Shown piece after piece: positions 18,601-43,325 of a stretch of DNA of 64,000 nucleotides. The stretch's first letter is position 1, and each line of letters begins with the position of its first letter. Source of the DNA: Laetmonice hystrix (lineage: Eukaryota); the NCBI GenBank assembly GCA_965235115.1, contig OZ249436.1:22384001-22448000 (forward strand), given 5' to 3'. The position numbers were made by a program, and so were the translations under genes. A model generated the notes under the pieces. The model had not been told where the DNA came from and ran no database searches. It saw nothing but the letters and a program-made list of their open reading frames with translations.

Positions 18601-21600
18601 GTCTGGCCAGACAGTAGGTTGACCACTGCCGGACCTGTATAATCTGGCCAGTAAAGGTAACGGTGCCAGTTATTAATGACAACATGACTGATAGCAATTC
18701 ATGACGATATGACAATCCGCTGGACCCATTCTACCATTTATAACCCGACAGGAAAGGCCACTTGGCGGTTAATCACTGGGCATGTGTACTGCTGATTCTG
18801 CTATTTGGCAGAGCTGACAAGTTTGCCAGCCATTAACAGTCAGAAACAACCCGAATCATGGCAGAGGCCAATATGAGCGAAACGTTGTGCCTACAACCCC
18901 CGCTCGAACCCAACCCCTCCGGGCTGTGGCTTGTACATCAGTGAGCTAACTTGATCTGCACCATGGCGCTGATCCTATTGTGAGGCCTCGGACACAATGG
19001 GTCGTAGCTCTAATGTCATCATTGGCATCATATTGCTGAGGGCCCATGCCCGCCAGCGACCTGCCCGCACTATCGGAGCCCTGTCTCCGGCCCCAGCCTG
19101 GTCCCGCCCAACCGTACCCACCCACAAACTCGGTTACCATGCCATCCCAACGCAGGTTATCTACATGTCAATTTATGATATAGTTATAACAATATTCCTT
19201 CACCCAAATGCGCCAGTGAAGACTTAACATTGTAAAGTTATTTACATTGATACAATGATACGGATGATTAGTTGTATAATGTTAAAGAGAGGATTGTGTC
19301 CATGTCGTGTATCGTGTCCGTATTTGCAGGTATATTAATACACTATATTATACAAAGATGTGAAGCAATTGTTTGAGCTGCCTTTGATTGTGCTCTGAAG
19401 AATATACTGTCGCTAAACTGGCCTTGACCTATAGGTCAAGGGTCATAACTGGTGAATGAACTTTGAAGTCCAAATGATACCACTTAGGGCACCTGTCAGG
19501 TGAAAGACAAGGCCTGCTTATCACCTCTCAATCTCTGTCTGACAGTTGAGAGCTGCCCATCTGGACAATATAGGATGACCATGTGCCTCTGTCTTAGCAC
19601 TGGGGGTCAGCCAGCATGATACGGCCTGTAGTTCCCTCCACGGCACATGGATAATCCAATATTAACTTTTAATTCTCGGCCTCGTACTACTTGCTGCTGA
19701 CAGGATGTCAGGACAAATTGGAGCGAACAGATTAATGGAAGTCTGTCGATGGCAATTTCTGTCCCGCAGCCTCACGGCCAATAGTGGACATCTATTGTGG
19801 TGGTGGCGGTGGTGGTGGTGGTGGTGCCTAAGACAGCGCCGTTCATGGCGGCATCTGTGTGCGTCTCCTCCAACTACAGGCGAGCCGTGACACTTTGTGT
19901 CTGGTGACATAATCGTGGGAAATTGGGCGAGATGTTGGGAGGAGGCATGACGAATGCTTTGTGTAGGGTTGCACAAACAATGGGGTTTGTGGTAGGGATG
20001 GGTGTGGGGCTTCCCAAGCTGGCTGCCACCTGCTAGGGTATCCATCGGGAGCCTGTGCAGTTACTGACCAGGTGTGTCTACCTCTATTTTACCCTATAAC
20101 CCATGCACAAAACACTCGGCTTACCTTTCGACACACTACATGTGTATCATTAAAATACTACGAGTTGTCATTAATACTGGCGACTATTTTCATTTTAAAT
20201 CATGAAAATGAAGTCAGTCCCTAGTTTACATTATGGCATTTCATTCTAGACCAAGTGTGCACTGGTCTTCATTCTCCCTTTTCTCCTCAGCACCTACTCC
20301 CAACTCATATACTACTTAGTGCGTATCCCAATTCATATACTACTTAGCCTCCCGCTAGGGGCGCCAAAGCTAGTAGCCACTCTTCCCTCCCTGATGACTC
20401 AACCCTCGGCTTTCTGCTCTCCTGTAGCCCAAACGTCCCTTGTGGGTTATGTCACGTGCAATTAATTCACACATCATTTTGACGGAGTCGGTTTATGTTC
20501 GGTTCGCCTGCCTCCATCAGAGTGGAGACGCCGGGGACACGCTCTGGGCCCCGACCCTCCATTAAGCTGCCAAAAGACTTCCAAAAAGGCAGCGCCGGTT
20601 TGGCCGTGCCAGCGGCCGTGCCGGCCGGCGGCGCCCGCGCCAAATACGGCCCGGCATGCGACGGCCGGTCCCCGCTCCGCCGTCAACTCCACGCTCAGCG
20701 GTCAGCATGCGATAGCAGCATTAAAAATGACATCGTACAGATGGATCGAGTCGATGGACGTTCTGCCTGGGAATTTTTCTATAATGCATGTAACAATCGG
20801 TCTTACAAATGTCCCCACTTTGTAGACCATTTGCAGCCATTAGATATTAAAGCACGGCCATATTCGTGGAGTTTACAGAAAAATGAACGATTTATTTTCC
20901 TGTAATTTTCATGTCATGATGTTGAGAAATGAGCAATTTGTAGGCAATGCCTCCGCATTCTGTGGTTGTATTTCACATGAAGTACTCAGTGAAATGGAGC
21001 AATTTCACCAGTAATGATCCTATCGATATGCTCTGATATCATTTTCTCATGCGAGTTCCTCAAATGCCTTCTTTCTCTCATAGCAAATTGGCAGGCTTCA
21101 ATTCAAACTTACTTGAAAATTGCCATCATACTCTTCAGTATCATGTCTCAAGGTTCCCCTACATGTCCATTTTAGTTCACTTAACGCTGAAGGCTATCGA
21201 CATCAAATGGCCTCCTTTGGTCCGATTGGTGTACAATTTGGATAATACGGGTTGCACATGGCGGCACCAATCCTCCAACCACTTTAACAGGAGTATAACG
21301 TCCTCACACACTGTCATGTTCACACAGCTGCTACAGTTAAAGTTAAAGTCCATGATGATATATATGATGGCTCTCACACGAGATAAGACGACTGGAAACT
21401 TACTTCTGTTTTCACATACGTGCCTGGAAGTTACCATTGTCTTAAACATCACGTGAACGGACGATAAACTCCACATAATTCCGCTCTCACAACACCACAC
21501 GGTACCACATGTAACTCCTACACGACATGGTAACTCACACACCACATGGTATCACATGGTAACTCCTACACCACATGGTAACTCGCACCCCACATGCTAA

Positions 21601-24600
21601 GTCACACACCACATGGTAACACACACCACATGGTAACTCACACACCACACGGTAGCACATGTAACTCCTACACCACATGGTAACTCACACACCACATGGT
21701 AACCCACACACCACATAACACACACGACATGGTAACTCACACACCACATGATAACTCACACACCACGTGGTAACTTACACCACATGAATGGTAACACACA
21801 GCACATGGTACCACATGGTAACTCACACACCACATGGTAACTCACACCGACATGGTAACTCACACACCACATGGTAACTCCCACCTACATGGTAACTCCC
21901 ACAACACACAGTATGCTATGATTTGAGGTTTAATCTTTAGGAAACCTAAGGCCACCTAATTTTTTCAAGAAGCTCCACAATTCAAGACCAGTCGGTGCAA
22001 GTTGTAAAAAAAGCCCATACTCGCGATACATGTGCCTAAGCTTTTATTGAGGGACGGACTCCTTCGACCTCCTCCCTAGAATAATGCACACATACAAACA
22101 CGAAGAAAATGCGCCCAGGGTAAGGTAATTTGACCCAATTTATTGTGATAAGTGTCTAACCTCAAGAATTTCACCAGCTTGTGTAAATTCGACATATTTA
22201 GATGATTTCATGACGTGACGTTATGACGTAGAGCTTGGTGTTGTGAGGGCGGAATTATGTGCCATGTGGTGTGTGTTACCATGTGGTGTGTGAGTTAGCA
22301 TGTGGGGTGTGAGTTACCATGTGGGGTGAGTTACCATGTGGTGTAGGAGTTACTATGTGGTACCATGTGGTGTGTGAGTTACCATGTGGTGTGTGAGTTA
22401 CCATGTGGTGTGTGAGTTACCATGTGGTGTAGGAGTTACCATGTGGTACCATGTGGTGTGTGAGTTACCATGTGGTGTGTGAGTTACCATGTGGTGTGTG
22501 AGTTATCATGTGGTGTGTGAGTTACCATGTGGTGTAGGAGTTACCATGTGGTACCATGTGGTGTGTGAGTTACCATGTGGTGTAGGAGTTACCATGTGGT
22601 GTGTGAGTTACCATGTGGTGTGTGAGTTACCATGTGGGGTGTGAGTTACCATGTGGGGTGCGAATTACCATGTGGGGTGTGTGTTACCATGTGGTGTGTG
22701 AGTTACCATGTGATGTAGGAGTTACCATGTGGTGTGTGAGTTACCATGCGGTGTGCGAGTTACCATGTGGTGTGTAAGTTACCATGTGGTGTGTGAGTTA
22801 CCATGTGGTGTAGGAGTTACCATGTGGTACCATGTGGTGTGTGAGTTACCATGTGGTGTGTGAGTTAGCATGTGGGGTGTGAGTTACCATGTGGTGTAGG
22901 AGTTACCATGTGGTACCATGTGGTGTGTGAGTTACCATGTGGTGTAGGAGTTACCATGTGGTGTGTGAGTTACCATGTGGTGTGTGAGTTACCATGTGGG
23001 GTGTGAGTTACCATGTGGGGTGCGAATTACCATGTGGGGTGTGTGTTACCATGTGGTGTGTGAGTTACCATGTGATGTAGGAGTTACCATGTGGTGTGTG
23101 AGTTACCATGCGGTGTGCGAGTTACCATGTGGTGTGTAAGTTACCATGTGGTGTGTGAGTTACCATGTGGTGTAGGAGTTACCATGTGGTACCATGTGGT
23201 GTGTGAGTTACCATGTGGTGTGTGAGTTAGCATGTGGGGTGTGAGTTACCATGTGGGGTGTGAGTTAGCATGTGGTGTGTGAGTTACCATGTGGTGTGTG
23301 AGTTACCATGTGGGGTGTGAGTTAGCATGTGGGGACCCGGGTGTGAGTTACCATGTGGTGTGTGAGTTACCATGTGGTGTGTGAGTTACCATGTGGGGTG
23401 TGAGTTACCATGTGGGGTGCGAATTACCATGTGGGGTGTGAGTTACTATGTGGTGTGTGAGTTACCATGTGGGGTGCGAATTACCATGTGTTGTGTGTGT
23501 TGTGGTGTGTGTTACCATGTGGTGTGTGAGTTACCATGTGATGTAGGAGTTACCATGTGGTGTGTGAGTTAACCATGTAGTGTGTGAGTTACCATGTGGT
23601 GTGTGAGTTACCTTGTAGTGTGCGAGTTAACCATGTAGTGTGTGAGTTACCATGTAGTGTGTGAGTTACCTTGTAGTGTGCGAGTTACCATGTGGTGTGG
23701 GAGTTACCATGTGATGTGGGAGTTACCATGTGATGTAGGAGTTACCATGTGGTGTGGGAGTTACCATGTGGTGTGGGAGTTACCATGTGGTGTGTGTTAC
23801 CATGTGGTGTGGGAGTTACCATGTGATGTAGGAGTTACCATGTGGTGTGGGAGTTAACCATGTGGTGTGAGAACAGGTTGTAGATGGAGACCCTAGTTTG
23901 TAGACATGTCATGGCCTCAGTGTACCGCTGTTTGCCCGGCCTAACGACACATCACTGATTAATCATCACTGATTAGCATTGATCATGGCGGGATGACGGC
24001 ACTTTGGTGGCAGACTTGACAAACACTACCACTGGGACAGAGCCGAGCCTACAGAACGCGCTGCAACTATCAGGGATGACAACTGTAACCAAAGATCTGG
24101 GAATACGGCCCTGGAATCGGAGTGTTGTCAGAGGGGGCCCTCCCCACCTGTCGTCACGGATCAGTTTAGGAGGGGGGGGGTGGATCCCACCCTAACATCA
24201 CTGATGGAAATCAGAATCCATCCGTAGTTTTCTCCACCATAGCTGACAATTCCCTTGTTAGACGAGTCAAACAAAACAGGTTGACTTCAGACCTGATACT
24301 ACTCCAGCTAACCATCCAAACCCCGGGCCAAATACGCTACACTCGTGCACAGATTTCGCCACCTTCTGGTGACGATTTCGGAATGACGTTTTATACTAAA
24401 TTATAGCTATAAACGGTGATGAGAGACGGCACCAGAATGGACTGTTTTTTGTGTGGAGGCCTATAAAATTGGACACGTGAAACGGGCACCTTAAGCAGCC
24501 CACTGGAAGCCATGGGCGCCAAACATTTTATACAAAAGGATGACAAATAGTGGCGTGGGGGCAGCGCTGGAAATGCATTCATTAAAATAAATAAATATAT

Positions 24601-30600: not shown

Positions 30601-33600
30601 TGAGCCGACCGCTATGGTATGGTGGTACACGTGAGGAAGTTGTGGCTGCCATTGCTCGCACATTGACCTCCGACCCGGGCCTCCAGCGACGGCGGCCAGT
30701 CGTCATCGATCAGACCAGGGCCCGCCTGTCAAACGGCCGGCCCCGCCCCCTACTCCCGGCCCATCCATAACCATTTAGTGCCACCGCCGAGCGGTTAATC
30801 CTCGCATCCATCAACCGCTCGCCCTTCTTGCACACTTTTACCATTACACATTGCCATTCTATAATTCATGAAATATACCTACATTTCCCACCAGAATGCC
30901 CCCCCCCCCCTTCCCATCCCAGCCCCCAGTGTCTCATCATGAAATCGCCAAATCAAATTTGTTGCACAGAGGCCATGTTGTCGATCTACTCTGACACATG
31001 TTTTCCTGTTAGATCTTTGTTTGATTTATTCGTTCAAATGGGCTTTGGGGACTGTACCGACCCAGGCTGGATCTTTGTCCTGGACTACAATAGGGAATTT
31101 AATGTTTCAAAACGGGCTGGGGATGTTACTGTAGTGACTGATATAGCATTGAATGTGATGGATAATTCGTAAAGTTGCACTTCCATACATGAATTATGTA
31201 GGCTGCCATATGGGGCAAAAACAACCCTACTCTATTCACAGTTGATTTAATGTACATCTTTACTCATTTCAAGTTAACAAAATAAGGCCAACCCATGGGA
31301 GAAATGAATTGATGCCAGAATGTCTACTTCTAAAAACTGTTAAAGAGTTTTAAGTGAGCGGCCGTAAGTGGAGGGTAGTTCTACAGGGACTTCATCTGGC
31401 TTGTTTTACCAAACAAACCACTGTCATGTTGACATTGAAAAGATGCACATCACCATACAGATTAGAAATAAGATCCATTAGTCTATGGCGATTAAGTGAA
31501 AAGAAAGCCTGCCGATTGCCCTGTTGAACTTGAAGGGCAATTCAAGCTAAGATGTATTCTTTTGGCGTAAGCTTGATTCTGCCACGGATCAATCTTGTTT
31601 CCACTATCATTCACTGAATCAGGGCCTGGGTTGTCAGAAATTCTCAACTTGAGTAAAGCTGACTTAAGTAAACTAACAGGCTTTTGATTGGAGGCCTAAG
31701 CAGACCAGCTAATCAGAAGCCTGTTAGTTTACTAACGTAAGCTTTACTCAAGTTGAGAATTTTGGACAAACTGGGCCCAGGTTATGACCCAGTCGGTGGA
31801 TATGATGCACTACCATTTATTTATGAAGGACCCAGTAGGTGGATATGATGCACTACCATTTATTTATGAAGGACCCAGTAGGTGGATATGATGCACTACC
31901 ATTTATTTATGAAGGACCCAGTAGGTGGATATGATGCACTACCATTTATTTATGAAGGACCCAGTAGGTGGATATGATGCACTACCATTTATTTATGAAG
32001 GACCCAGTAGGTGGATATGATGCACTACCATTTATTTATGAAGGACCCAGTAGGTGGATAGGATGCACTACCATTTATTTATGAAGGACCCAGTAGGTGG
32101 ATATGATGCACTACCATTTATTTATGAAGGACCCAGTAGGTGGATAGGATGCACTACCATTTATTTATGAAGGACCCAGTAGGTGGATATGATGCACTAC
32201 CATTTATTTATGAAGGACCCAGTAGGTGGATATGATGCACTACCATTTATTTATAAATGAAGAAAGGGGAAACTATCCGGGGGGATAATTGAAGACATGC
32301 CAACCTTTTCTCTCGGTTACTTTTTTGTAATTATCATGGTGTTCATCGGGAGAGTGATGAGTTTGTACCGGTTTTTTGATTCATGGCTGACACCCACCTC
32401 TGTGCCATCCTCTGGCGGAGTTTCTTGCAGCGTTTCTTTAGGGCCTTCTGCCGCTCCTTCTCAGTGGCCACCTGGGGGTCAGGTTTGTCATACGGCGCGT
32501 CCGATATATGGGCAAGGTTGAAGGCCTCCTGTTTGAAACACACACAATCACAACATTTAGTTCCCCGCATGTACAGTTACCAGTGCAACCTTACTCTTCA
32601 ATTGAAGTAGGTTAAATTGCTCATTCAATATTTTTCATTTTTCATCTGAGTTCCTGCTTCACCGCAGAACTGGTTTATCAATTTGATTTGTTCTTTGAGC
32701 ATCAATGGCGGAGAAATGTCACACTGGCCGATCTTCTTATGAGGAGAGTATTATTCATGATTGCCGATAGGTGGCACCACTAAGCAAAGATTAGTTTCAC
32801 TGCCAACCACAAGGTGGCGACACAAACGGTTTTCTTCGTCTTGCTGCAATCCCAAGCAATGCAGGGGATCTAATTTGCCTCCGATCTAATGCCGCCGACT
32901 TACTATTTCACTCTTGGAGAGATCTTTGCCATTGCTGCTTTCCTTCAGGGCAAGCTGATGTTTCCTTCCTCTAAGATGGCTCATTAGGTACACCTCAGAG
33001 GGGATCTAGGACGAGTGAAGAAGATCAAATGTACATACACAAAAGATAAATTCAAAACTCGACACGATTTTCAATTCAATAACTAGATGAGACATCCTAT
33101 AAAAATGCAAACTCCAATGAAAACCACAAGATATGTGATAGAGAAAGTGTGTGACGACTAACCATGATGTTGCAGACGGTACAGAGTTTCTTGCGGTCAT
33201 ATGGCACAAGTCTAGGAGCATCATTGTGGTCTTCAGTGGAATGCTTTAAGACACTCATTTCAAACGCTTTCTCTCGTATACTCTCCAGGTTCTCTTTGTG
33301 ACGACGTGCACTCTCATCTTGCTGGAAGAGAGCAATTTATGGCCGTACAATACACGTGGTCCAGTTTAAAATATCATTGTTACTTGTATGACCAGGCATA
33401 AAGTCGACCTTCACTGTCCAAGATGCTACCTTGAATGATTGAAATGTTACATTCCAACATGGGGTGGAATTATTGTTTCTACCTCTAATTATGGAAGGTG
33501 ACATTGGATGAACCGCCAGAATAAACAGTTTGGTCTAGGTGATGAGTAAAATTATCCACGACCACTGGGGCCCCCCTGGGAACTACTGGGTATGTCTGTG

Positions 33601-36600: not shown

Positions 36601-39600
36601 TACAGTTACTCTTATGTTAACACCAATGTAGAATGTACATGACTGAATGAAATGAGTTTGAGGGAGTTGGGGGGGGGGGGAGATTCTACTAGGGTAATTG
36701 ATTACCTTTAAGCGCTAGCTCTTACATTTAATAAATTTGATCAAATCCTGCTTTTTTATTAGCACTGTTACAATTTGGAAAAACAGTTTCCTTAACTATA
36801 TTAGATAAAGAATAAAGAAAGGTGGACAAAACACACGAACACGGAACAGTGTACTGTGTGCATCAACATATTACCCTGTAACAGAACCAAAAGAAACCAA
36901 GATACAGTTTCCTAGACATCATAGTGATTCCTTGTCTCAGAGTAACTATTATCAGTACTATTAGCAGAGAACCACTTTCACACCTCTTATTCCTGGCAAA
37001 GTTAAATAAACTCCCAATTTCAATACTTGTAGTAATCATTATAAAGCATTCATATAAAGTCATCTTTACTACCTTTGTTTCCTCCTCATGAGCTTTTCTG
37101 ACTTTCTGCCGCAGCTGAACCTGGCGTTTCTCTTCTGCTCGCTGCATTTTCCTTTCCATTGTGTCCTTCCTCTGTTTCAATAGTTCATCCTTCCAGGACC
37201 GAACTTCTTCCACCTATTGTTTGTGTTAGCACATTCTTACAACCATCAAAATATTTCTCCGTGGTTGCCACCACTCAAAAATCTACCTTCTTGTATCTTA
37301 TATTGTACTCTATACAAGATGTTTCACGGAGGCGGCAGATTGGTAGATTGTGATCTACTGCGGCATAATTTACTTTTTAAAAGTTGTACATAGCAGATAG
37401 TGCTAGGCAAATTGAAGTTGCCTAGCTAGAATCTGCTCAAAATTGTGTTGCAGTCAGCCAAAAAAAAAATACAAAACTTGCAAAATGAAATATATAGCAG
37501 AAGATGAGGGAAGTACCTGTGTTAAAAGGCTGATGTCGGCTTACCTTGCCTGACAGCATCCGCAGTCGCTCAGCTTGGTCAGTCATCAACTTCTCCCTTA
37601 GTTCACGGGCTTTTTGCTGTTTTTCCTCATGACGTTTACGAGATTCTGTGGGGGATCTGTAAATTAAAACAATGGTTTATGACATGCATCTAAACATGCC
37701 AATGGGAAGCAGCCTCGCTGTAATAACACCAGATGCTGTTTATCTCAAGATTTATTTAGGAGACTCAAAAACAGGTAACCTTTTACTTTGGGGTAAGAAA
37801 CTATTTTCACGACAATGATAAACCTAGGCCACAGGCAGAAGCGTATTACAGAATACTGGAATACTTCGGGTCGGGAAAGCTCTACAAACCTTTTTCTTGA
37901 GGGAGAGGAAAGTTTTTCATGCATATGCACAACTCGACCTGGGGTTCGCGACTCAGCCTCCTCCACCATATCCCCCCAGCTCTTGGGAATCTGGTCTTTA
38001 GAGTCTGTCAGGAATAGGAAGGCTTTCAGTAACCACGACACAACGATACATTCTGAGATAATGCCACACTATAAATATGAGGTCAATCTCACAGTCAAGA
38101 ACTGCATTCTCCATGGATAAGGAGGACATGTGCTACTTTCACTTTTCTTGGTCTTACTAATATTAAATTGTCTGTAGCATGTCGTTATCAGGAATTCTTA
38201 GTTATTTTTATCAATTTAGATGCATCCTTTACCTTCATACTGCTTGACTATTGAGTCCCAGTCGGTGGCCTGCTGAGACAATTCACAGCTGCTTTGGGTC
38301 CCCTGAAAAATATTTCCCAATGTGGGTTACTAGAACAAATATCCAACTTTTACCTGTAACTAGTGTTACAAGCATGATTGCAGGTAAGAAGCCAGGTATT
38401 GTATTAATCTCATCAAACAAGTTATAGTTGGTTGATTTGGTCACTGGGAACTGCAACTGGCAATAAATGTCTAAATGCTGCAAACAGAAATGCTGCATCA
38501 CTTTCTATGAGTTGACCAGTAAGTGGACAAGGATACAGAGCAGACTTACACCTAGTTCACCATCTGTTTCTGGTTCTGTGTCCACTATGATCTCTGTGCT
38601 CTTCTCACGCTCGATCTCCTTCAGCCAGTTCTGTTCTTCCTGTGTAGCTTCTTCCAAAGCTTTCTCCTGCTCCTCTGCAAGCTCCTCTTCAATCTTCTGA
38701 ACTGTGTGCAGCTCCTGTCCAAGAAGCAACAGGTAGCCCCGCATGACTTTTGACAATGACATGACTTTCAGTTGAAGCATATGTTTAAATTTGTATCAAT
38801 GATCTCGAAAACATATATACCCAGCCTCATTCTACCTTCTGCATGGAATCAGTTCCAGGGACCCTTTTTTCTGGTAACGTCTGAATCAGAATATCTATTT
38901 ATGACATCAACATTACTTGCCATCTCTTAGGATCATGAATGATGATACTGGAAAATATCTTGTAAAAAATAGGACCAAGGGTCCTGTAGCTTACCACTGC
39001 CAGCAAACGGTATTAGAGCTAAAAGGCACATATTATTTATCTTGAGTTGTCGTGGGGCACAGCACATCCAGCTGGGTACCCCTTGATCTCAGCAGTCTAA
39101 AACATTTAATATTAATAATAGGACCTGACATAGAACTTTATAGACTATGCCATAATTTAGGGGCCGGGAATCTCGTCTCCCTCGCTAGGTGTCTATTGGT
39201 CGATGTGAGAGACTGACTGGTTCCCTGCTGAGCGGAGTAAGGCAGGTTCCCATGACGTCATACACGATTATACCAGATTATAGCAATTTTTTTTGCGTAG
39301 CAACATTCAGCCCCATGCCCCAAAGTGGCACAGCCAGGGCACGTGCCGCATGCCAGTCTGCAGGGTTAGGTACGGGAGGGGGATATGAAGCGGCACCAAA
39401 GATGAGTCCACGTTCAGCTGGTAATCCAAGGAAAGGAGATCTCCGGGCCAGATATTGGGCATTTCTTTTTGAAAACTTAAGGCGAGCCGTTGATGAAATA
39501 TATCAGAAGTGCCCTTTTTCGCCGCAAAAATGGTAAAAAATAAAAATGTTGAAAATCATTTTAAAAAAAGGTCTAGAGAATGCCCTAAGAAATAACTATG

Positions 39601-42600
39601 CCAAATTTCAGAAAAAAAATGTTGAATAGTTATCGAAATGTAGCTGCTAACAGACGGATGACGGACGGACGCTAACCCACGACAATAGCTTATCAGCCCA
39701 AAGGGCTGGTAAGCTAAAAAGTAGATCTATGTGGACATCTACCCTATCTTTGCCTACCTTTTCAAGCTGCTTTGTGAGGTGCTCTTCGACGTCATCTCTC
39801 TCATCATCTGAGCTGAATTCATCATCCATGCCTGACGTATCACGAAGATCGAGATCCCTCAGATGCAGAGAGCCAGCCGTACTGACATCCAAGGTGTTGA
39901 TCATTTCTGCTGCACCGCAACACCTTCTGTCGACTTGATCATTCATTTTGTCATGCTCAATTTTCTTACTTGACTTATCGACATCTAAACCCCAGGCATT
40001 TTTCACATTGCCATTCTGCACCGATTCTTCAACACCCTTGGGCTGACTTATGTTACGCATATTATTCTGTTCCTGCACTGACAAAGGCAGGTTTTCCTTT
40101 TCACTCTCTCTACTGCTAGTCCGGTACCTGAAGTCATCCTTTGCAATGGTATCAGCCGAAGGGACACTGAGATGAGCATCAAAGTAGGCAATATCGGGAG
40201 GGCCACTCTGTGAGCGAGCCAGCATTTCTTTGTGTAAGTTTTCCTTGACAAGTGACCGATACCTGTCACTCCCACTCGTCTGGTGATGGTTGGCAGCGCC
40301 TGTCTGCGGGTTGGTAGCACTGAACGAGGATCGCCCCTTCATCCGGCCACCACGCTGCACAGTCTCCCATCCCTCCATGTCATCTGAGTGTCAATAGCAA
40401 GTCAATATTGAAGCTCATCTTTTAAAATTAACGGTACAACTGTACTAAAAAATTATAAAGCATACATCCATCTAGTATACCATGAACTTTTTCAGTCCCA
40501 GGAACGGATTTAGAACCAATCCTATTTTGTGCTACCCATTTTGGGGTGATGCACTGACAGTCTTTGATCTTGTAGTGTAGGACTCGTCCTATTATGTACG
40601 AATGCCCAAGTTTGTTCCTAATTTGGGTGTTGCACTAAACAAAATCTTCCCATGTAGTCCTGAATGAAAATCATTATTAAATCATGGACTGCTCCAGACC
40701 AGTCCTACCTGCTGTAGGACCATGCTCTAAAGATGTTTTTTTGGTAGATTTAACTCTACAAAGGACTGGCTTCACGTCAAACTTCAAGCACTAAATCTAA
40801 TTTCAACTAATGTTTAGCAACATTAGTCAGTCATTGGTGCTGAAAAATAGATTAGTGTTTCTGATACGAACCTTCCTCAGCAGCAGTTGGGGTTGACACC
40901 TGCAGGAAAGACTCCTGGGGTTTGATATGCTTTGCTTCTGCTCCGACTGACACAACTTGTGGCGGCACAGCTCGAACTGGGGGAGATCCCTTCACCTTGT
41001 CAGCCCAACTGTTGCCAGGACTGAAGAAAAATAGCTAATGAAACATACTGCTTATATATAAGTTCATTTTAAATTAAACGAACCAAGTGAAGTTTGATGT
41101 TAATTCTACCATTGGTACTTCGCGAGATGGGGCATGTAAGATACGGTTTGGCGAGGGCCACAAGGTAGAATCAGAGATACATTTCCACTTTAAAATATAA
41201 TTAGTGGGGAAAAGCCCTGTTACTTACACATTTAGTGGGCCAGCAAAGTTCAGACTGCGAACTACAGACGGACTTGGAGTGATGTGTTCCTTGGCAGTCA
41301 CATTCTGCTGCAAACTTTTACCTGGGGACGACTTGCGTACTTCCCATGCTAACGATGTCGGCCTGTGACAAATGATACATCAGATTCAGATTAATTAGTG
41401 TTTAACAACATGATTCTTTGGAGCAAAACCTGGCAGTTGAATTACCTGGTACTTACTTTTGGCCCTCTTCTGCGTTGTCATAAGCTTCCAGTAACTCTAC
41501 ACGCTCAATGAGGGATTTGAAATCTTTTGTACACTGTTCCAACATCATGATAACTTCCTGCAATGTATCCAAATGAATTTCAACATTCATGTACTGCCAA
41601 CTCCAGCATGGCAAGGAAGACATCACAAAACTAATTACCTATAAAGCACCATTAGTGATCATTGGCAATTACTATTCTTCTCCACTCTATTTCTCTTCTT
41701 AAAAATTCTTAAAATTAAGATAAGACTATCAGTGAAAGACTTTCGATAATAGTGTTTTGCAAATGCTCTTATCAAAACCTTATTCCTTAATGCATCGTTC
41801 CAAAATATAGCTTGCCGACTAGTGATTAAGAGTGGAAGTCACTCTCTAGATGCACTCGACTTTGACAGTATTTGACTGTTTTTTCATTCCTGTTGTGTTT
41901 GTAAAATCCATAAGTTTATGTAATGACAAGAGCTAGACCAGGGCCCATTTTTTTGGTTTACTTTTCCACTGTGAGCAAGGGTAAGCTGAGCTGAGCAAGG
42001 GTGAGCATGAACTCATGCTCACTGTTTTGCATGAACCATTTTCGTTTTTTGTTGTTTTTTCCCGTGGGCTTGCTCACCATGAGGACGCCTCACGTAAAGA
42101 AATAAACCAAAAAACACGAAAACGGTGAGATGAGCTCATGCTCACCCTTGCTCAGCTCAGCTCAGCCTTGCTCACGGTGGAAAAGTAAACAGAAAAAACG
42201 GGCCCAAAACATCACTAGTTCCCATGTTGTACAGAGCACAGAGATCCCCTGTCATAGATAACTACGCCAAGTGTTGTGTGGCTTATCCTACCATGCCGCT
42301 TAGCCTACCGCTCCACCAAATTCCAATTGGAGATGCGCTTTAGTCATTTGACATTACAAATAAGCAGACGTCTTGTGAACAAGATGGGTGAATTTTGACA
42401 AGATGTTATTGTCTACAAGAACTGTTTCATTAATAATGTGGAAGTTGTCTTACCTTACATTCAACAACACTTTCATCTGCTTCACAGGTCTGATATATTT
42501 CATCAACGGCTCGCCTTAAGTTTTCAAAAAGAAATGCCCAATATCTGGCCCGGAGATCTCCTTTCCTTGGATTACCAGCTGAACGTGGACTCATCTTTGG

Positions 42601-43325
42601 TGCCGCTTCATCAAAAGCAACCACATGTTTCTTCCCCGGGGGTGGAGTGACATCCCTGAGAGCTCGTCGACTTGTACTCGAGTTTGATCTTTGGTGACGA
42701 CGTGCAGAACCATGGTGTGGAGACCTAGGTAGTTGCTGTTGTTGATCTTGATGGCGGTCATTCCTTGACTTCCCTATTGAAAATATTTGCCACTTAACTT
42801 CTTAAGTGTTTTCTTAATTGAACTATATGGGAAAAGCAAAATTTTTAAGTTTTCAAGTAAAATGTTTTAAGGCCCATGACATGTGCAGAGTAGCAAGTTG
42901 GCGAGTAGCATATTCTGGAGATAGGCCTACTTACCCAGTCTGACTGGGGCTAATTTATTGACGTTTCCATCACATGGGCTAGTAATTTTTCATCTTGTCT
43001 TTACATAAACTTATGGATTTTACTAGCCCGGCTGGCTAGTTCCTAAACACTTTAATTTTTACCCCTGATGTGTAAGTAATCCAACAATCCAAAATTCAAC
43101 AACATTTTCTACTTTACCAAATAAGAATCAGCATAGTGACTAAGTGAGTGTTTTATTTTCACTGTACTGAAATTGCAGTGACCGGCAGTATCTCTTACTT
43201 TGTGTAGTGTTGGCATCTTCAGCATCAACAGGTACATTCCACTGTATCAGGTTCCTTGCTGACCTTCCTTCCTCCTGAACTATCTTACGTACTTGGTCAT
43301 AGCTTGACTGCCTCTGAAAGTTCGT
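3378..43325 (-). CDS. SCAPER: SCAPER (S-phase cyclin A-associated protein in the ER); 24 coding exons, start exon uncertain and 3' end outside the window
   Basis: Spliced translation resembles vertebrate SCAPER throughout: NFQRQSSYDQVRKIVQEEGRSARNLIQW, LRARYWAFLFENLRRAVDEIYQTCEADESVVECK, HMHEKLSSPSRKR, NEIAFINTLEAQNKRHD, a C2H2 finger (CTVC...HLRGRKH), DSGPWAQNRVSAVDRALGEI. All introns are GT-AG and the phases agree. Confidence 0.97.
3965..4630. repeat. ~94-bp minisatellite, 7 copies with a variable G tract
   Basis: Unit ttcagtttccatgattttcgggcctgtattttatcc...gtgtatgg(g)n. Confidence 0.95.
4641..4787 (-). CDS. SCAPER: SCAPER exon YIVSVGVVDKLAQYFTGVRGSIDDNHQASEFLQHSLALL
   Basis: cag acceptor, gtaaaa donor; resembles human YVVNMGLIDKL...VQGPVDENPKMAIFLQH. 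Confidence 0.92.
5710..5924 (-). CDS. SCAPER: SCAPER exon ILIPDGFAQL...GDAFLNKANDIVS
   Basis: cag acceptor, gtcagt donor; resembles human GDPFNNRVQDLIS. Confidence 0.9.
6092..6215 (-). CDS. SCAPER: SCAPER exon SLSHACNVYRLSCKSCYDSCHYMLCTNKIGSLVDLLVHQLN
   Basis: cag acceptor, gtaagt donor; resembles human SLCNAINVYNLTCNNC...NKITFLMDLLIHQL. Confidence 0.93.
6802..7270. repeat. ~65-bp minisatellite, 7 copies
   Basis: Unit ctccttgccagaccaaacttacatgt(c)n gacaacatggcagcgcccacaaaccatctca. Confidence 0.95.
8999..9368. mobile_element. PIF/Harbinger-like MITE
   Basis: TTA TSD; TIR ggccaaaaaa..aatcccggtttctgg / ccagaaaccgggatt..ttttggcc. Confidence 0.78.
9430..10380 (-). mobile_element. Possible degenerate LTR-retroelement remnant
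   Basis: Broken reading frame with GPFTI resembling an integrase C-terminal GPY/F region; weak. Confidence 0.25.
9615..9823. repeat. 21-bp minisatellite, about 10 copies
   Basis: Unit gtcgcccgacaaacagagtcg. Confidence 0.93.
12200..12312 (-). CDS. SCAPER: SCAPER exon SSADQTAFRLSGGLTTLSRIL...IPPK
   Basis: cag acceptor, gtaagt donor; resembles human ADQIAFQAAGGLTALEHIL...IPPK. Confidence 0.92.
12707..12833 (-). CDS. SCAPER: SCAPER exon LQKVMRDLNKYLAAPDSGPWAQNRVSAVDRALGEIGRIMEKR
   Basis: cag acceptor, gtacgc donor; resembles human DSGSWANNKVSALDRTLGEITRILEK. Confidence 0.93.
12960..13305 (+). repeat. ~87-bp tandem repeat, 3-4 copies, probably SINE-derived
   Basis: Unit ggtctcgtccaccagtaaaactgaccgacttgttatgaccctggtaaaccctcactcacaatcc. 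Confidence 0.85.
15367..15706. mobile_element. Kolobok-like non-autonomous DNA transposon
   Basis: TTAA TSD; TIR aggtgctattcg / cgaatagcacct. Confidence 0.75.
16430..17450. repeat. 1-kb polypurine G/A tract with ~45-bp subrepeats
   Basis: gaggatgtggaggaggtggaggg(g/c)aggagagcggagaggg repeats followed by degenerate GGGGA arrays. Confidence 0.95.
21490..21905 (+). repeat. 20-bp satellite array (caccacatggtaactcaca), left arm
   Basis: About 20 degenerate units. Confidence 0.93.
22260..23870 (-). repeat. Same 20-bp satellite in inverted orientation, about 80 units
   Basis: Unit gagttaccatgtggtgtgt; contains a 362-bp higher-order duplication. Confidence 0.95.
25059..25121 (-). CDS. SCAPER: SCAPER 63-nt exon GLEYENSLVGKQPPESEHRAK
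   Basis: tttcag acceptor, gtgagt donor; fills the gap corresponding to human AKEYESLMETKNSGSDSPYKAK; phases fit. Confidence 0.88.
25140..25520. repeat. ~119-bp tandem repeat, about 3 copies
   Basis: Unit taccctaggtaagacagtctgata...cacactgttaaatcgaaggactttctcg. Confidence 0.9.
26569..26737. mobile_element. Palindromic Harbinger-like MITE
   Basis: CAG TSD; about 78-bp near-perfect inverted arms. Confidence 0.8.
28292..28815. mobile_element. Kolobok-like non-autonomous DNA transposon
   Basis: TTAA TSD; TIR aggaatcatggca / tgccatgattcct. Confidence 0.78.
30113..30390. repeat. ~23-bp AT-rich minisatellite, about 12 copies
   Basis: Unit ataacaatatctctaataactct. Confidence 0.93.
31623..31777. 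mobile_element. Palindromic Harbinger-like MITE
   Basis: CAG TSD; about 70-bp inverted arms with central gattgg/ctaatc. Confidence 0.75.
31786..32255. repeat. 43-bp minisatellite, 11 near-identical copies
   Basis: Unit gacccagtaggtggatatgatgcactaccatttatttatgaag. Confidence 0.96.
32398..32528 (-). CDS. SCAPER: SCAPER exon EAFNLAHISDAPYDKP...KALKKRCKKLRQRMAQR
   Basis: cag acceptor, gtgggt donor; basic stretch. Confidence 0.92.
32904..33005 (-). CDS. SCAPER: SCAPER exon IPSEVYLMSHLRGRKHQLALKE... (second half of the zinc finger)
   Basis: tag acceptor, gtaagt donor; resembles human SEVYLFSHVKGRKHQ. Confidence 0.94.
33163..33321 (-). CDS. SCAPER: SCAPER exon QDESARRH...APRLVPYDRKKLCTVCNIM (first half of the zinc finger)
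   Basis: cag acceptor, gttagt donor; resembles human APKLTPYERKKQCSLCNVL. Confidence 0.94.
33998..34222 (-). CDS. SCAPER: SCAPER exon ERRKALEAER...ELQKKIQQK
   Basis: tag acceptor, gtagaa donor; coiled coil. Confidence 0.93.
34544..34597 (-). CDS. SCAPER: SCAPER exon EERQRKHEEKAAKEAAVE
   Basis: tag acceptor, gtaaca donor; 54 nt in frame. Confidence 0.9.
35283..35384 (-). CDS. SCAPER: SCAPER exon ANEIAFINTLEAQNKRHDIITKHQEFEARLHDIQ
   Basis: cag acceptor, gtaacc donor; very close to the vertebrate motif. Confidence 0.95.
37073..37213 (-). CDS. SCAPER: SCAPER exon VEEVRSWKDELLKQRK...KAHEEETK
   Basis: tag acceptor, gtagta donor; coiled coil. Confidence 0.92.
37545..37656 (-). CDS. SCAPER: SCAPER exon SPTESRKRHEEKQQKARELREKL...
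   Basis: cag acceptor, gtaagc donor; coiled coil. Confidence 0.92.
37890..38004 (-). CDS. SCAPER: SCAPER exon SWGDMVEEAESRTPGRVVHMHEKLSSPSRKR
   Basis: cag acceptor, gtttgt donor; strongly conserved motif. Confidence 0.94.
38233..38302 (-). CDS. SCAPER: SCAPER exon GTQSSCELSQQATDWDSIVKQYE
   Basis: tttcag acceptor, gtaaag donor; resembles human MDWNDVLADYE. Confidence 0.87.
38550..38714 (-). CDS. SCAPER: SCAPER exon ELHTVQKIEEELAEEQEKALEEA...ETDGELG
   Basis: cag acceptor, gtaagt donor; acidic coiled coil. Confidence 0.9.
38969..39716 (-). mobile_element. Helentron-associated non-autonomous element (HINE/DINE-1-like) carrying a captured SCAPER exon fragment
   Basis: Minus strand begins TTTTTAGCTTACCAGCCC-TTT-GGGCTGATAAGCTA, has a (GTCC)n microsatellite, and ends with subTIR TGGTAAGCTA, hairpin AGGACC..GGTCCT and a T run. 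Confidence 0.8.
39758..40383 (-). CDS. SCAPER: SCAPER large exon DMEGWETVQRG...EEHLTKQLEK
   Basis: 626-nt open exon, cag acceptor, gtaggc donor; EGWETVQRG motif. Confidence 0.92.
40872..41020 (-). CDS. SCAPER: SCAPER exon PGNSWADKVKG...
   Basis: ttcag acceptor, gttcgt donor; SWADKVK motif; phases fit neighbouring exons. Confidence 0.88.
41228..41362 (-). CDS. SCAPER: SCAPER exon PTSLAWEVRKSSPGK...VRSLNFAG (RxL cyclin-binding-like motif)
   Basis: cag acceptor, gtaagt donor; resembles human RPTSLAWEVKKMSPG...RRSLNFGG. Confidence 0.93.
41457..41557 (-). CDS. SCAPER: SCAPER exon EVIMMLEQCTKDFKSLIERVELLEAYDNAEEGQ
   Basis: cag acceptor, gtaagt donor; resembles human EVLMMLDNYVRDFKALI. Confidence 0.93.
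41942..42204. mobile_element. Palindromic Harbinger-like MITE
   Basis: ggccc...gggcc termini; about 75-bp inverted arms (gctgagcaagggtgagcatga). Confidence 0.72.
42454..42773 (-). CDS. SCAPER: SCAPER exon ending GDLRARYWAFLFENLRRAVDEIYQTCEADESVVECK (conserved N-terminal domain)
   Basis: tag acceptor, gtaag donor, 320 nt open. Confidence 0.95.
43199..43325 (-). CDS. SCAPER: SCAPER exon TNFQRQSSYDQVRKIVQEEGRSARNLIQWNVPVDAEDANTTQ
   Basis: tttag acceptor, gtaag donor; resembles the human N-terminus SFQRSNSHDKVRRIVAEEGRTARNLIAW. Confidence 0.93.

Follow-up and report, generated by a model that had tools for sequence, protein, structure and literature searches.

How does an exact antisense copy of part of a coding exon come to lie within a transposable element in an intron of the same gene, and may it affect the expression of this gene? 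This question is raised by the SCAPER gene of Laetmonice hystrix. The locus was studied in a stretch of 64,000 nucleotides from contig OZ249436.1 (forward-strand positions 22,384,001 to 22,448,000, assembly GCA_965235115.1), called the window in the following; all positions refer to it. A first-pass annotation of the window had suggested that a Helentron-type element acquired the exon fragment recently and nearby, and that the resulting chimera could become a mobile antisense regulator.

An inverted-repeat search detected positions 39385-39507 as the reverse complement of 42489-42611, with 123 of 123 bases matching (100%) and the two arms 2981 nt apart. This was the longest of 74 inverted pairs in the 64-kb window, and the probability that a 123-nt match arises by chance is negligible. 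In the 627-Mb assembly the 123-mer was found at two sites, the exon and the intronic copy (two candidates, both scored), so that the antisense match claimed earlier was obtained in the window and in the whole-genome search alike. The source segment is contained in a minus-strand ORF (42430-42801) with a Pfam match to SCAPER_N (E 3.8e-20), whose translation is the peptide quoted in the first-pass annotation. Because the copy is on the plus strand and the SCAPER pre-mRNA is a minus-strand transcript, the copy is antisense within this pre-mRNA. It comprises 123 of the about 320 bases of the exon, and both of its ends are internal to the exon. Since the exon ends at 42454 and is followed by GT at 42453-42452, 35 nt separate the copied part from the donor, which is exactly the distance noted previously. 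A weak similarity (71%) between 39449-39479 and 40235-40265 was treated as chance. The coordinates of all features are compiled in Table 1.

Table 1. Features of the SCAPER locus around the inverted exon copy (positions in the window; + and - denote the strand)
Feature	Position	Strand	Basis or remark
Exon A (source exon)	42454..42773	-	donor GT at 42453-42452; upstream limit taken from the first-pass annotation
Source segment	42489..42611	-	inside the SCAPER_N-coding exon
Exon B	41456..41559	-	SCAPER_N profile positions 39-77; splice motifs
Exon B'	41229..41362	-	SCAPER_N profile positions 76-96; downstream limit approximate
Exon B2	40872..41020	-	donor confirmed by spliced contig; upstream limit approximate
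Exon C	39758..40383	-	donor about 36-41 nt upstream of the HINE-like element
HINE-like non-autonomous element including terminal T runs	~38964..39721	-	alignment of both ends, 11 copies; T runs appear as A runs on the plus strand
Conserved arm, element positions 539-748	39507..39716	-	5' part in the HINE's own orientation
Inverted SCAPER exon copy	39385..39507	+	exact; antisense within the minus-strand pre-mRNA
MITE X fragment, MITE positions ~20-124	39285..39386	+	unrelated MITE of about 390 bp with terminal inverted repeats
HINE interior remnant	39247..39284		alignment with full-length relatives; ends in 7-nt direct duplication
Conserved arm, element positions 1-278	38969..39246	-	3' part in the HINE's own orientation

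Four exons, B, B', B2 and C, separate the source from its copy, as had been claimed before. They were called from Pfam matches, splice motifs and one spliced RNA-like contig. The SCAPER_N match of exon B' (E 3.8e-5) reaches 24 bits compared to a Pfam cut-off of 25. The spliced contig, from the RNA-like run X4, contains one joint, from 40383 to 40872, reading CT..AC on the plus strand and thus GT..AG on the minus strand; it ends at 39757, in agreement with the donor of exon C, and X4 does not cover 42489-42611 or 39385-39507. The intron carrying the copy is the fifth downstream of the SCAPER_N exon. Of seven small ORFs between the exons that were compared with Pfam, four had no family and two had only sub-threshold, unrelated matches.

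The element housing the copy had been described as a HINE spanning 38969-39716. These limits agree with our family alignment, and the HINE structure is corroborated by end features conserved across the copies. The element's own 5' to 3' direction is the minus strand, as for SCAPER. Its subterminal inverted repeats, TAGCTTACCA (38987-38996) and TGGTAAGCTA (39707-39716), are complementary at all 10 positions and conserved across 11 copies. Close to the 3' end lies a palindrome (AGGACC..GGTCCT, 38971-38985), and close to the 5' end a hairpin (39686-39716) whose stem measures 14 nt; both are conserved in relatives, too. Runs of 4-7 A (plus strand; T in the element's own orientation) of variable length mark both boundaries in 10-11 of 11 copies; to fix the exact TT target site an empty site would be needed. 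One relative (L004) exhibits tandem repeats, eight repeats of a 15-nt unit. The element in the window is non-coding except for a chimeric frame of 115 amino acids running through the exon patch, the only ORF of more than 100 amino acids.

The own-genome search gave at least 59 matches to this element (40 of 235 candidates scored). The 32-nt end motif gave 30 genome matches at up to two mismatches, and the end of the window element shows no mismatch to the commonest variant, which is common to 10 of the 30. Among ten other two-armed copies, nine possess interiors of 131-1165 bp and one (L009) has none; the eight interiors of at least 405 bp are homologous to each other. In the window copy about 38 nt of interior are left, the 400-1165-bp interior of the full-length relatives being lost.

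In place of the lost interior we found a patchwork, i.e. a stretch of roughly 100 nt from an unrelated MITE and next to it the inverted exon piece, which together fill the internal deletion of the HINE. The idea of a capture inside a HINE describes only half of the filler, to which the adjoining MITE fragment belongs as well. MITE X has at least 41 matches, with identities of 88-97% (40 of 100 candidates scored), of which nine other copies were aligned; no copy was found elsewhere in the 64-kb window. Its fragment equals the family majority except for one cluster of three bases. A search of the assembly for this variant found it once at up to one mismatch and in no other MITE copy.

The junctions of the patchwork are sharp. 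The MITE fragment breaks off in the middle of the palindrome GGGGGATAT/CCCCC (the stroke marks the cut) and is followed at once by the exon copy, the AT at 39385-39386 being common to both (2-nt microhomology). Directly after the exon copy, homology to the HINE arm resumes exactly at element position 539, and the A at 39507 is common to the exon copy and the arm (1-nt microhomology). The junction between HINE and MITE contains a 7-nt duplication, GATTATA (39266-39272) and GATTATA (39276-39282), with CCA in between. We considered this structure as the footprint of an excised transposon; however, the MITE fragment stands after the second GATTATA and not between the repeat copies. Neither a target-site duplication nor poly(A) was seen at the junctions around the patch.

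Element and patch differ markedly in their divergence. The arms 38969..39246 and 39507..39716 are at most 87.4% and 87.0% identical, respectively, to 16 other copies. The best pair within the HINE family reaches 95.4%, and none lies clearly above 95%. The exon patch, in contrast, shows no difference to the exon in 123 nt. Judged by these values, the HINE copy is old and the patch is young. The exon copy appears as young and as local as the first-pass annotation had assumed. With arms that come no closer than about 87% to any relative and a patch without divergence, the capture would not have been part of a transposition event. The chimera itself is restricted to one locus: the string across the HINE/MITE junction occurs at one genome site at up to three mismatches, and all three junction-spanning strings searched were unique in the genome. 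With a chimera at a single locus and a family lacking recent near-identical copies, a mobile antisense regulator, as envisaged earlier, is unlikely.

We observed directly how the locus and its junctions are built, that the chimera is unique, and that element and patch contrast in age. In our judgement the patch is probably a one-off, young, templated filler of DNA repair in a resident element, and neither a capture during transposition nor a mobile regulator. Of the two routes proposed before, local capture or templated repair, the latter fits best and capture during transposition is not supported. The features of filler repair are present, i.e. an insert at a deletion breakpoint, an intact donor, short junction homology and the lack of a target-site duplication or poly(A).

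The event may have proceeded as follows. An old HINE-like element residing in the SCAPER intron would have suffered a break in its interior or a collapsed replication fork, and most of the interior would have been lost. The gap would then have been bridged by copy-and-switch repair synthesis of the kind known as filler DNA or templated insertion. The new strand would first have used a MITE located elsewhere as its template, for about 100 nt, and dropped off at the centre of the palindrome. By means of two nucleotides (AT) it could have re-annealed to the SCAPER exon at a distance of 3 kb, on the opposite strand, copied 123 nt and rejoined the other broken end via one nucleotide (A). The outcome would be a scar at a single locus, not a product of transposition, which did not spread. 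A single event, the order of template switches and the initiating lesion are what we infer, and the MITE fragment may stem from a separate, earlier event. Microhomologies of 1-2 nt are weak evidence, as roughly every fourth junction would share one base by chance alone. The templates may have been DNA or RNA, and the process may have been break repair or template switching during replication. The state before the event was reconstructed from relatives only (no allele free of the patch was seen).

The main competing explanation is a capture linked to Helentrons, in which the exon was taken up during transposition of the HINE into this intron, or a nick set by a Helentron Rep/helicase at the resident copy was followed by template switching of the strand-replacement synthesis at this donor site. 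Both routes would leave a still-mobile element carrying antisense SCAPER sequence. The ends of the HINE are indeed intact, including the 32-nt motif identical to the commonest variant, and passages of a study on Helentrons and HINEs report gene fragments in both (PMC4067079). Helentrons are also numerous in this genome. We detected 125 Helitron_like_N matches, of which 98 lie in open frames with a length of 2000 amino acids or more, and the one element checked (6.9-kb stretch) shows the Helentron architecture, with DUF6570, Rep, PIF1 and, at the C-terminus, Exo_endo_phos. Yet a recent transposition should leave a near-identical source copy, while the best identity of the arms to other copies is about 87% and the patch between them is undiverged. 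The chimera is also unique in the genome. Transposition-coupled capture predicts several copies or recent mobility, and in the assembly neither the 123-mer nor the MITE variant nor the HINE/MITE junction was multiplied. Comparing by eye the 30 end-motif matches with the 125 Rep matches, we found none less than 25 kb apart (nearest pair 29 kb), and the Helentron checked had nothing in common with the HINE in the 4.8 kb downstream of its ORF. We therefore regard a Helentron-linked origin as unlikely, though its donor-site variant is conceivable. It is very unlikely that the inverted copy is old and owes its identity to repeated gene conversion between the arms or to selection for pairing. Gene conversion can occur between inverted repeats separated by 3 kb on one chromosome, and the host element itself is old. 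However, the adjoining MITE fragment, which the exon cannot convert, is also close to its family majority, and with the MITE fragment undiverged the patch appears young as a whole; moreover, conversion tracts would have to stay inside the 123 bp without flanking homology.

An artefact of the assembly, in which the exon came to lie inside the repeat through a chimeric read or an error of the consensus, is highly improbable. Judged by indirect support, the duplication is probably real in the reads. Four sequencing runs were used, all as Logan contigs from one sample of one study, and this sample may be the source of the assembly. One contig of run X3 (42208-42611) stops precisely at the boundary of the repeat and the following one begins at 42582, the pattern expected from a branch of the k=31 graph at this boundary. 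The mean word depth of this contig is 74.6 compared to 56-62 in neighbouring single-copy contigs, and by our own arithmetic a second copy of the 93 internal 31-mers would account for about this excess. In favour of an artefact, the copy is situated between two repeated sequences, the weakest ground for assemblies; contigs of runs X1 and X2 pass 42489 and 42611 without a branch, and no piece bridging 39384/39385 or 39507/39508 was found among the longest contig pieces listed. Against it, besides the contig break and the depth in X3, stand the clean junctions of the patch and the element, which is in register on both sides. Foldback artefacts of reads are not expected to produce an internal insert of 123 bp. 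Templated repair in the resident element thus remains our preferred explanation of the locus.

What may the patch do? In principle, the exon and the intronic copy are predicted to form 123 perfect base pairs with each other within the SCAPER pre-mRNA. The calculated energy of the duplex is -243.5 kcal/mol, and all 123 pairs are formed in the minimum-energy fold of a 3474-nt pre-mRNA; the perfect intramolecular duplex proposed at first is thus also predicted by thermodynamics. By default, we expect the patch to be neutral or slightly deleterious. Beyond this, we tentatively put forward as a possibility that the patch is a newborn intronic sequence complementary to an exon, whose putative duplex would, in carriers, recruit ADAR and lead to A-to-I editing over the SCAPER_N segment. 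Back-splicing of exons B-C or processing by Dicer might be further consequences of the duplex; the first-pass annotation had named exon skipping, A-to-I recoding and endo-siRNAs as putative effects. If this were true, the locus would provide a natural before-and-after case for how repair scars in intronic transposons give rise to editing-site partners, circRNA arms or hairpin small-RNA loci.

An actual function, in which the patch would tune SCAPER output as an editing-site complementary sequence, as a back-splicing arm or as a source of hairpin small RNAs, would be compatible with any of the origins above but is distinctly unlikely. About five loci of the genome carry adenosine-deaminase (A_deamin) genes (15 matches). 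The predicted duplex ends 35 nt from the donor of exon A and brackets the acceptor of exon B and the donor of exon C, and according to an excerpt of a circularisation study inverted repeats of 30-40 nt are enough for the circularisation of minigenes (PMC4201285). On the other hand, the RNA-like contig shows ordinary splicing of B2 to C, with exon C leaving at its normal donor. The unique, young and perfect copy bears no sign of selection, and harm would be the more likely result if a conserved domain were edited promiscuously.

If the patch is indeed a repair scar, it would represent a clean and datable example of host coding sequence that entered a transposon without transposition, the route being patchwork repair synthesis which borrowed a nearby exon and an unrelated MITE. 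For annotation this implies caution: exon fragments in Helitron-type elements do not, on their own, prove a capture during movement. At the same time, a perfect exon-intron inverted repeat of 123 bp in an intact conserved gene offers a natural experiment on editing, back-splicing and small RNAs.

Compared with known RNA-pairing systems, the locus exhibits both parallels and differences. Known editing-site partners are short, imperfect and conserved and are usually located in the adjacent intron, and the arms of circRNAs are both intronic. At SCAPER, in contrast, a coding arm would take part in the pairing, the predicted duplex comprises 123 bp without a mismatch, and its loop contains four exons. 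With ADAR editing-site partners, and with the intronic inverted repeats promoting circRNAs (PMC4201285), the locus shares an intronic stretch complementary to an upstream part of the same pre-mRNA.

The host element itself has several features in common with the HINE/DINE-1 elements described in PMC4067079. Both possess inverted repeats in subterminal position, terminal palindromes, boundary T runs that vary in length and, in some copies, tandem repeats; both lack coding capacity and occur in genomes that contain Helentrons. No autonomous partner with identical ends was found here by the comparison of end-motif and Rep matches and in the one Helentron checked. The subterminal repeat also differs, having 10 nt here and 12-15 nt in the HINEs described there, and lying about 20 nt from the 3' end compared to 38-60 nt (PMC4067079).

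The stepwise acquisitions of Sfru_Hel1A, in the portion of PMC6544945 dealing with them, resemble our locus in that host sequence lies inside the element away from its ends, with short junction homologies and with pieces from more than one source locus side by side. Chimeras of the Sfru_Hel1A type, however, were amplified into sub-families in that account, whereas here a single copy is present in an old element and the donor is an exon of the host gene itself, inserted in inverted orientation (PMC6544945). Short junction homologies are also what the filler-DNA model outlined in the same source predicts (PMC6544945). Maize Ds elements with internal deletions, which are non-autonomous too, according to an extract of PMC3260210 likewise keep their ends and have their interior replaced by filler, which is occasionally genic. 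Ds belongs to the cut-and-paste hAT superfamily, though, and the donors reported in this extract are on other chromosomes, unlike here (PMC3260210).

Further parallels were found in templated insertions of Class 2, for which the relevant passages of PMC5110952 describe matching junction features and patches at double-strand breaks in human and yeast. Judging from these passages and from an excerpt on microhomology-mediated template switching (MMBIR, PMC2621351), both share with the SCAPER patch the lack of a target-site duplication or poly(A), microhomology and a donor that is kept, as well as a complex outcome with several templates and a deletion. The SCAPER patch differs from the Class-2 insertions, as characterised in these passages, in that the recipient is the interior of a transposon and that it was seen in one assembly (PMC5110952).

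The first-pass annotation had described an exact antisense copy of part of a conserved SCAPER coding exon in an intron of the same gene, and this observation is confirmed. An inverted-repeat search recovered two arms of 123 nt each, 100% complementary and 2981 nt apart; among the 74 inverted pairs of the window, no other is as long. In the entire 627-Mb assembly, the 123-base sequence occurs at two sites only, namely the exon and its copy (2 of 2 candidates scored). The source lies in a minus-strand open reading frame (42430-42801) with a Pfam SCAPER_N match (E 3.8e-20), the translation of which includes the peptide quoted in that annotation. Since exon A ends at 42454 and is followed by a donor GT at 42453-42452, the copied segment ends 35 nt before the donor, as had been claimed. 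It comprises 123 of about 320 exon bases, and both of its ends are internal to the exon.

SCAPER is transcribed on the minus strand, and the earlier count of four exons between source and copy is right, because exons B, B', B2 and C could all be placed (Table) and a contig of sequencing run X4 confirms the B2-C intron by omitting 40384-40871, the minus-strand ends of which read GT..AG. Two stretches are heterozygous in the sampled animal: 41566-41702, where two 137-nt contig alleles differ at 6 sites, and 42178-42900 around the source exon, where 6 listed substitutions and an 8-nt deletion were seen in run contigs, none inside the 123 bp. The intron directly after the source exon holds a foldback element (41941-42205; 76-nt arms, 91% complementary, 113 nt apart). 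Its summed word depth of about 100,000-350,000 in the runs, compared to about 75 for single-copy sequence, makes it a member of an extremely abundant repeat family. Within the SCAPER-spanned region also lies an array (31700-32344) whose eleven units of 43 nt are for the most part 98-100% identical. A further local inverted duplication is formed by a 19-nt-unit minisatellite array and a shorter inverted partner array about 0.7-2 kb off (21492-21881 and 22220-23900; longest inverted match 116 nt, 96% complementary).

Table. Positions of the host element, its patch and the neighbouring SCAPER exons in the window
Feature	Position	Strand	Content or basis
HINE-like host element	38964-39721	-	element position 1 = 38969
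MITE fragment	39285-39386	+	positions ~20-124 of an unrelated ~390-bp MITE; match search and alignment
Exon copy	39385-39507	+	
Exon C	40383-39758	-	B2-C intron from run X4 contig
Exon B2	~41020 to 40872	-	B2-C intron from run X4 contig
Exon B'	41362 to ~41229	-	SCAPER_N profile 76-96, E 3.8e-5, just below cut-off
Exon B	41559-41456	-	SCAPER_N profile 39-77 and splice motifs
Exon A	42773-42454	-	
Source of copy	42611-42489	-	in exon A

The host element starts some 36-41 nt past the donor of exon C and, in the published HINE orientation, is directed along the minus strand like SCAPER. Its assignment as a HINE-structured, Helentron-associated element is borne out: a subterminal inverted repeat (TAGCTTACCA/TGGTAAGCTA, 10/10), a hairpin with a 14-nt stem at one end, a palindrome AGGACC..GGTCCT at the other and, at each boundary, an A/T run of 4-7 that differs between family copies all agree with the published description (PMC4067079), as do tandem repeats seen in one relative. 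The family has at least 59 matches in the genome (best 40 of 235 candidates scored). The same genome appears to hold a large, apparently intact Helentron population, with 125 Helitron_like_N matches, 98 of them within open frames of 2000 aa or longer (up to 3634 aa; e.g. C12:22168001-22178524). One Helentron examined encodes DUF6570, Rep, PIF1 and a C-terminal Exo_endo_phos domain; no similarity was found between it and the host HINE. Compared to the 125 Helitron_like_N matches, none of 30 end-motif matches of the host family had a Rep match within 25 kb. Four Helentron Rep matches of equal score in 2855-aa frames, spaced about 27.9-28.2 kb (C5:29448625-29533159), suggest a tandem array of ~28-kb units.

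Only element positions 1-278 and 539-748 are common to the host element and its relatives. One of the 10 other two-armed copies lacks an interior; in the remaining nine it measures 131-1165 bp, and the eight interiors that reach at least 405 bp are mutually homologous. The window copy retains only about 38 nt of the family interior (39247-39284), terminating in the 7-nt duplication GATTATA-CCA-GATTATA. The exon copy lies inside the element as proposed, within a patchwork of MITE and exon that had gone unnoticed. The MITE family (~390 bp, 13-nt terminal inverted repeats CAGACCTGCCAAC..., internal palindrome; loci L032-L040) gives at least 41 matches to the fragment at 88-97% identity (best 40 of 100 candidates scored). 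It numbers at least 40 copies, 88-97% alike, and the flanks of two copies suggest a target duplication of 6-7 bp. The match breaks off at the palindrome centre, between GGGGGATAT and CCCCC, where the exon copy begins, AT (39385-39386) being common to both sources. At its other end, the exon copy joins the HINE arm precisely at 39507 (element position 539), and one A is shared. Neither a target-site duplication nor poly(A) was found around the whole patch. A putative 115-aa frame (39189-39536, plus strand), antisense to SCAPER, leads from the HINE arm across the MITE fragment and on into the exon patch, whose original reading frame it keeps (SCAPER_N, E 2.9e-13). The interior of one relative (L015) carries a nested insertion with long inverted ends (AGCTAGGAACAGACAGGACGCAATG...), so HINE-family interiors gather other small elements.

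Compared with 16 other copies each, the two arms of the window copy reach no more than 87.4% and 87.0% identity; within the whole family, the nearest pair has 95.4%. The exon patch shows no difference from its source in 123 nt (divergence below ~2.4% at the 95% level), in line with the very recent copying proposed earlier. The MITE fragment has the family majority base throughout, except for one 3-base cluster absent from every other copy in the genome (search up to 1 mismatch), and the HINE/MITE junction occurs once (up to 3 mismatches). It follows that the element is old and the patch young, and that the chimera has never been copied. Other copies carrying the insert do not exist in the genome-wide search, and a mobile antisense regulator is not supported: the MITE variant and the junction are each confined to this single chimera, and the 123-mer to the chimera and the source exon.

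The runs are Logan contigs from one sample, possibly the assembled animal. That the duplication is real is supported indirectly in two ways. The X3 contig 42208-42611 stops right at the repeat boundary, with the following one beginning at 42582, the pattern of a boundary branch with 31-mers. Furthermore, the mean depth of the former is 74.6 compared to 56-62 for adjacent single-copy contigs, an excess about equal to that added by a second copy of 93 internal 31-mers. However, X1 and X2 contigs continue across both boundaries, which counts against it. Contigs of this kind are prone to losing variants, and none of the contig pieces listed bridges the patch junctions. Unique contigs at both HINE edges have full diploid depth, suggesting that the HINE is present on both haplotypes of this animal.

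The proposed 123-bp perfect pre-mRNA duplex is also predicted by folding (-243.5 kcal/mol for the two arms; 123/123 pairs in the minimum-energy fold of a 3474-nt stretch). One end of it would lie 35 nt from the donor of exon A, and it would flank the exon B acceptor and exon C donor, which makes back-splicing of exons B-C a more specific expectation than plain exon skipping. The single spliced RNA-like contig (X4) shows ordinary splicing. Genes with adenosine-deaminase domains occur in the genome.

Of the two origins offered earlier, local capture or templated repair, the latter fits best: a repair scar of a known kind, left in an old HINE, explains the patch well. That the exon was captured while the HINE transposed into this intron site is not supported, since no near-identical source copy exists (closest at most 87.4%). 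It is possible that Helentron enzymes, acting on the window copy as donor, had a part in the event. Judged by its sequence, the patch has the anatomy of filler DNA, or templated insertion, lying at the breakpoint of a deletion. Within the resident HINE, a break or a collapsed fork would have left a gap bridged by repair synthesis, jumping between templates via very short homologies. As the MITE and exon pieces are both undiverged, adjoin each other and fill one gap, a single event appears favoured, two events being possible. The exon template could be the DNA 3 kb away or SCAPER's own RNA, which the sequence does not distinguish, as no exon boundary falls inside the piece.

Template jumps via short homologies are predicted by the filler-DNA model for Helitron-type elements (PMC6544945). 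The junction features of the patch match those defining class-2 templated insertions (PMC5110952), and Ds elements contain genic filler similar to that of the window HINE (PMC3260210).
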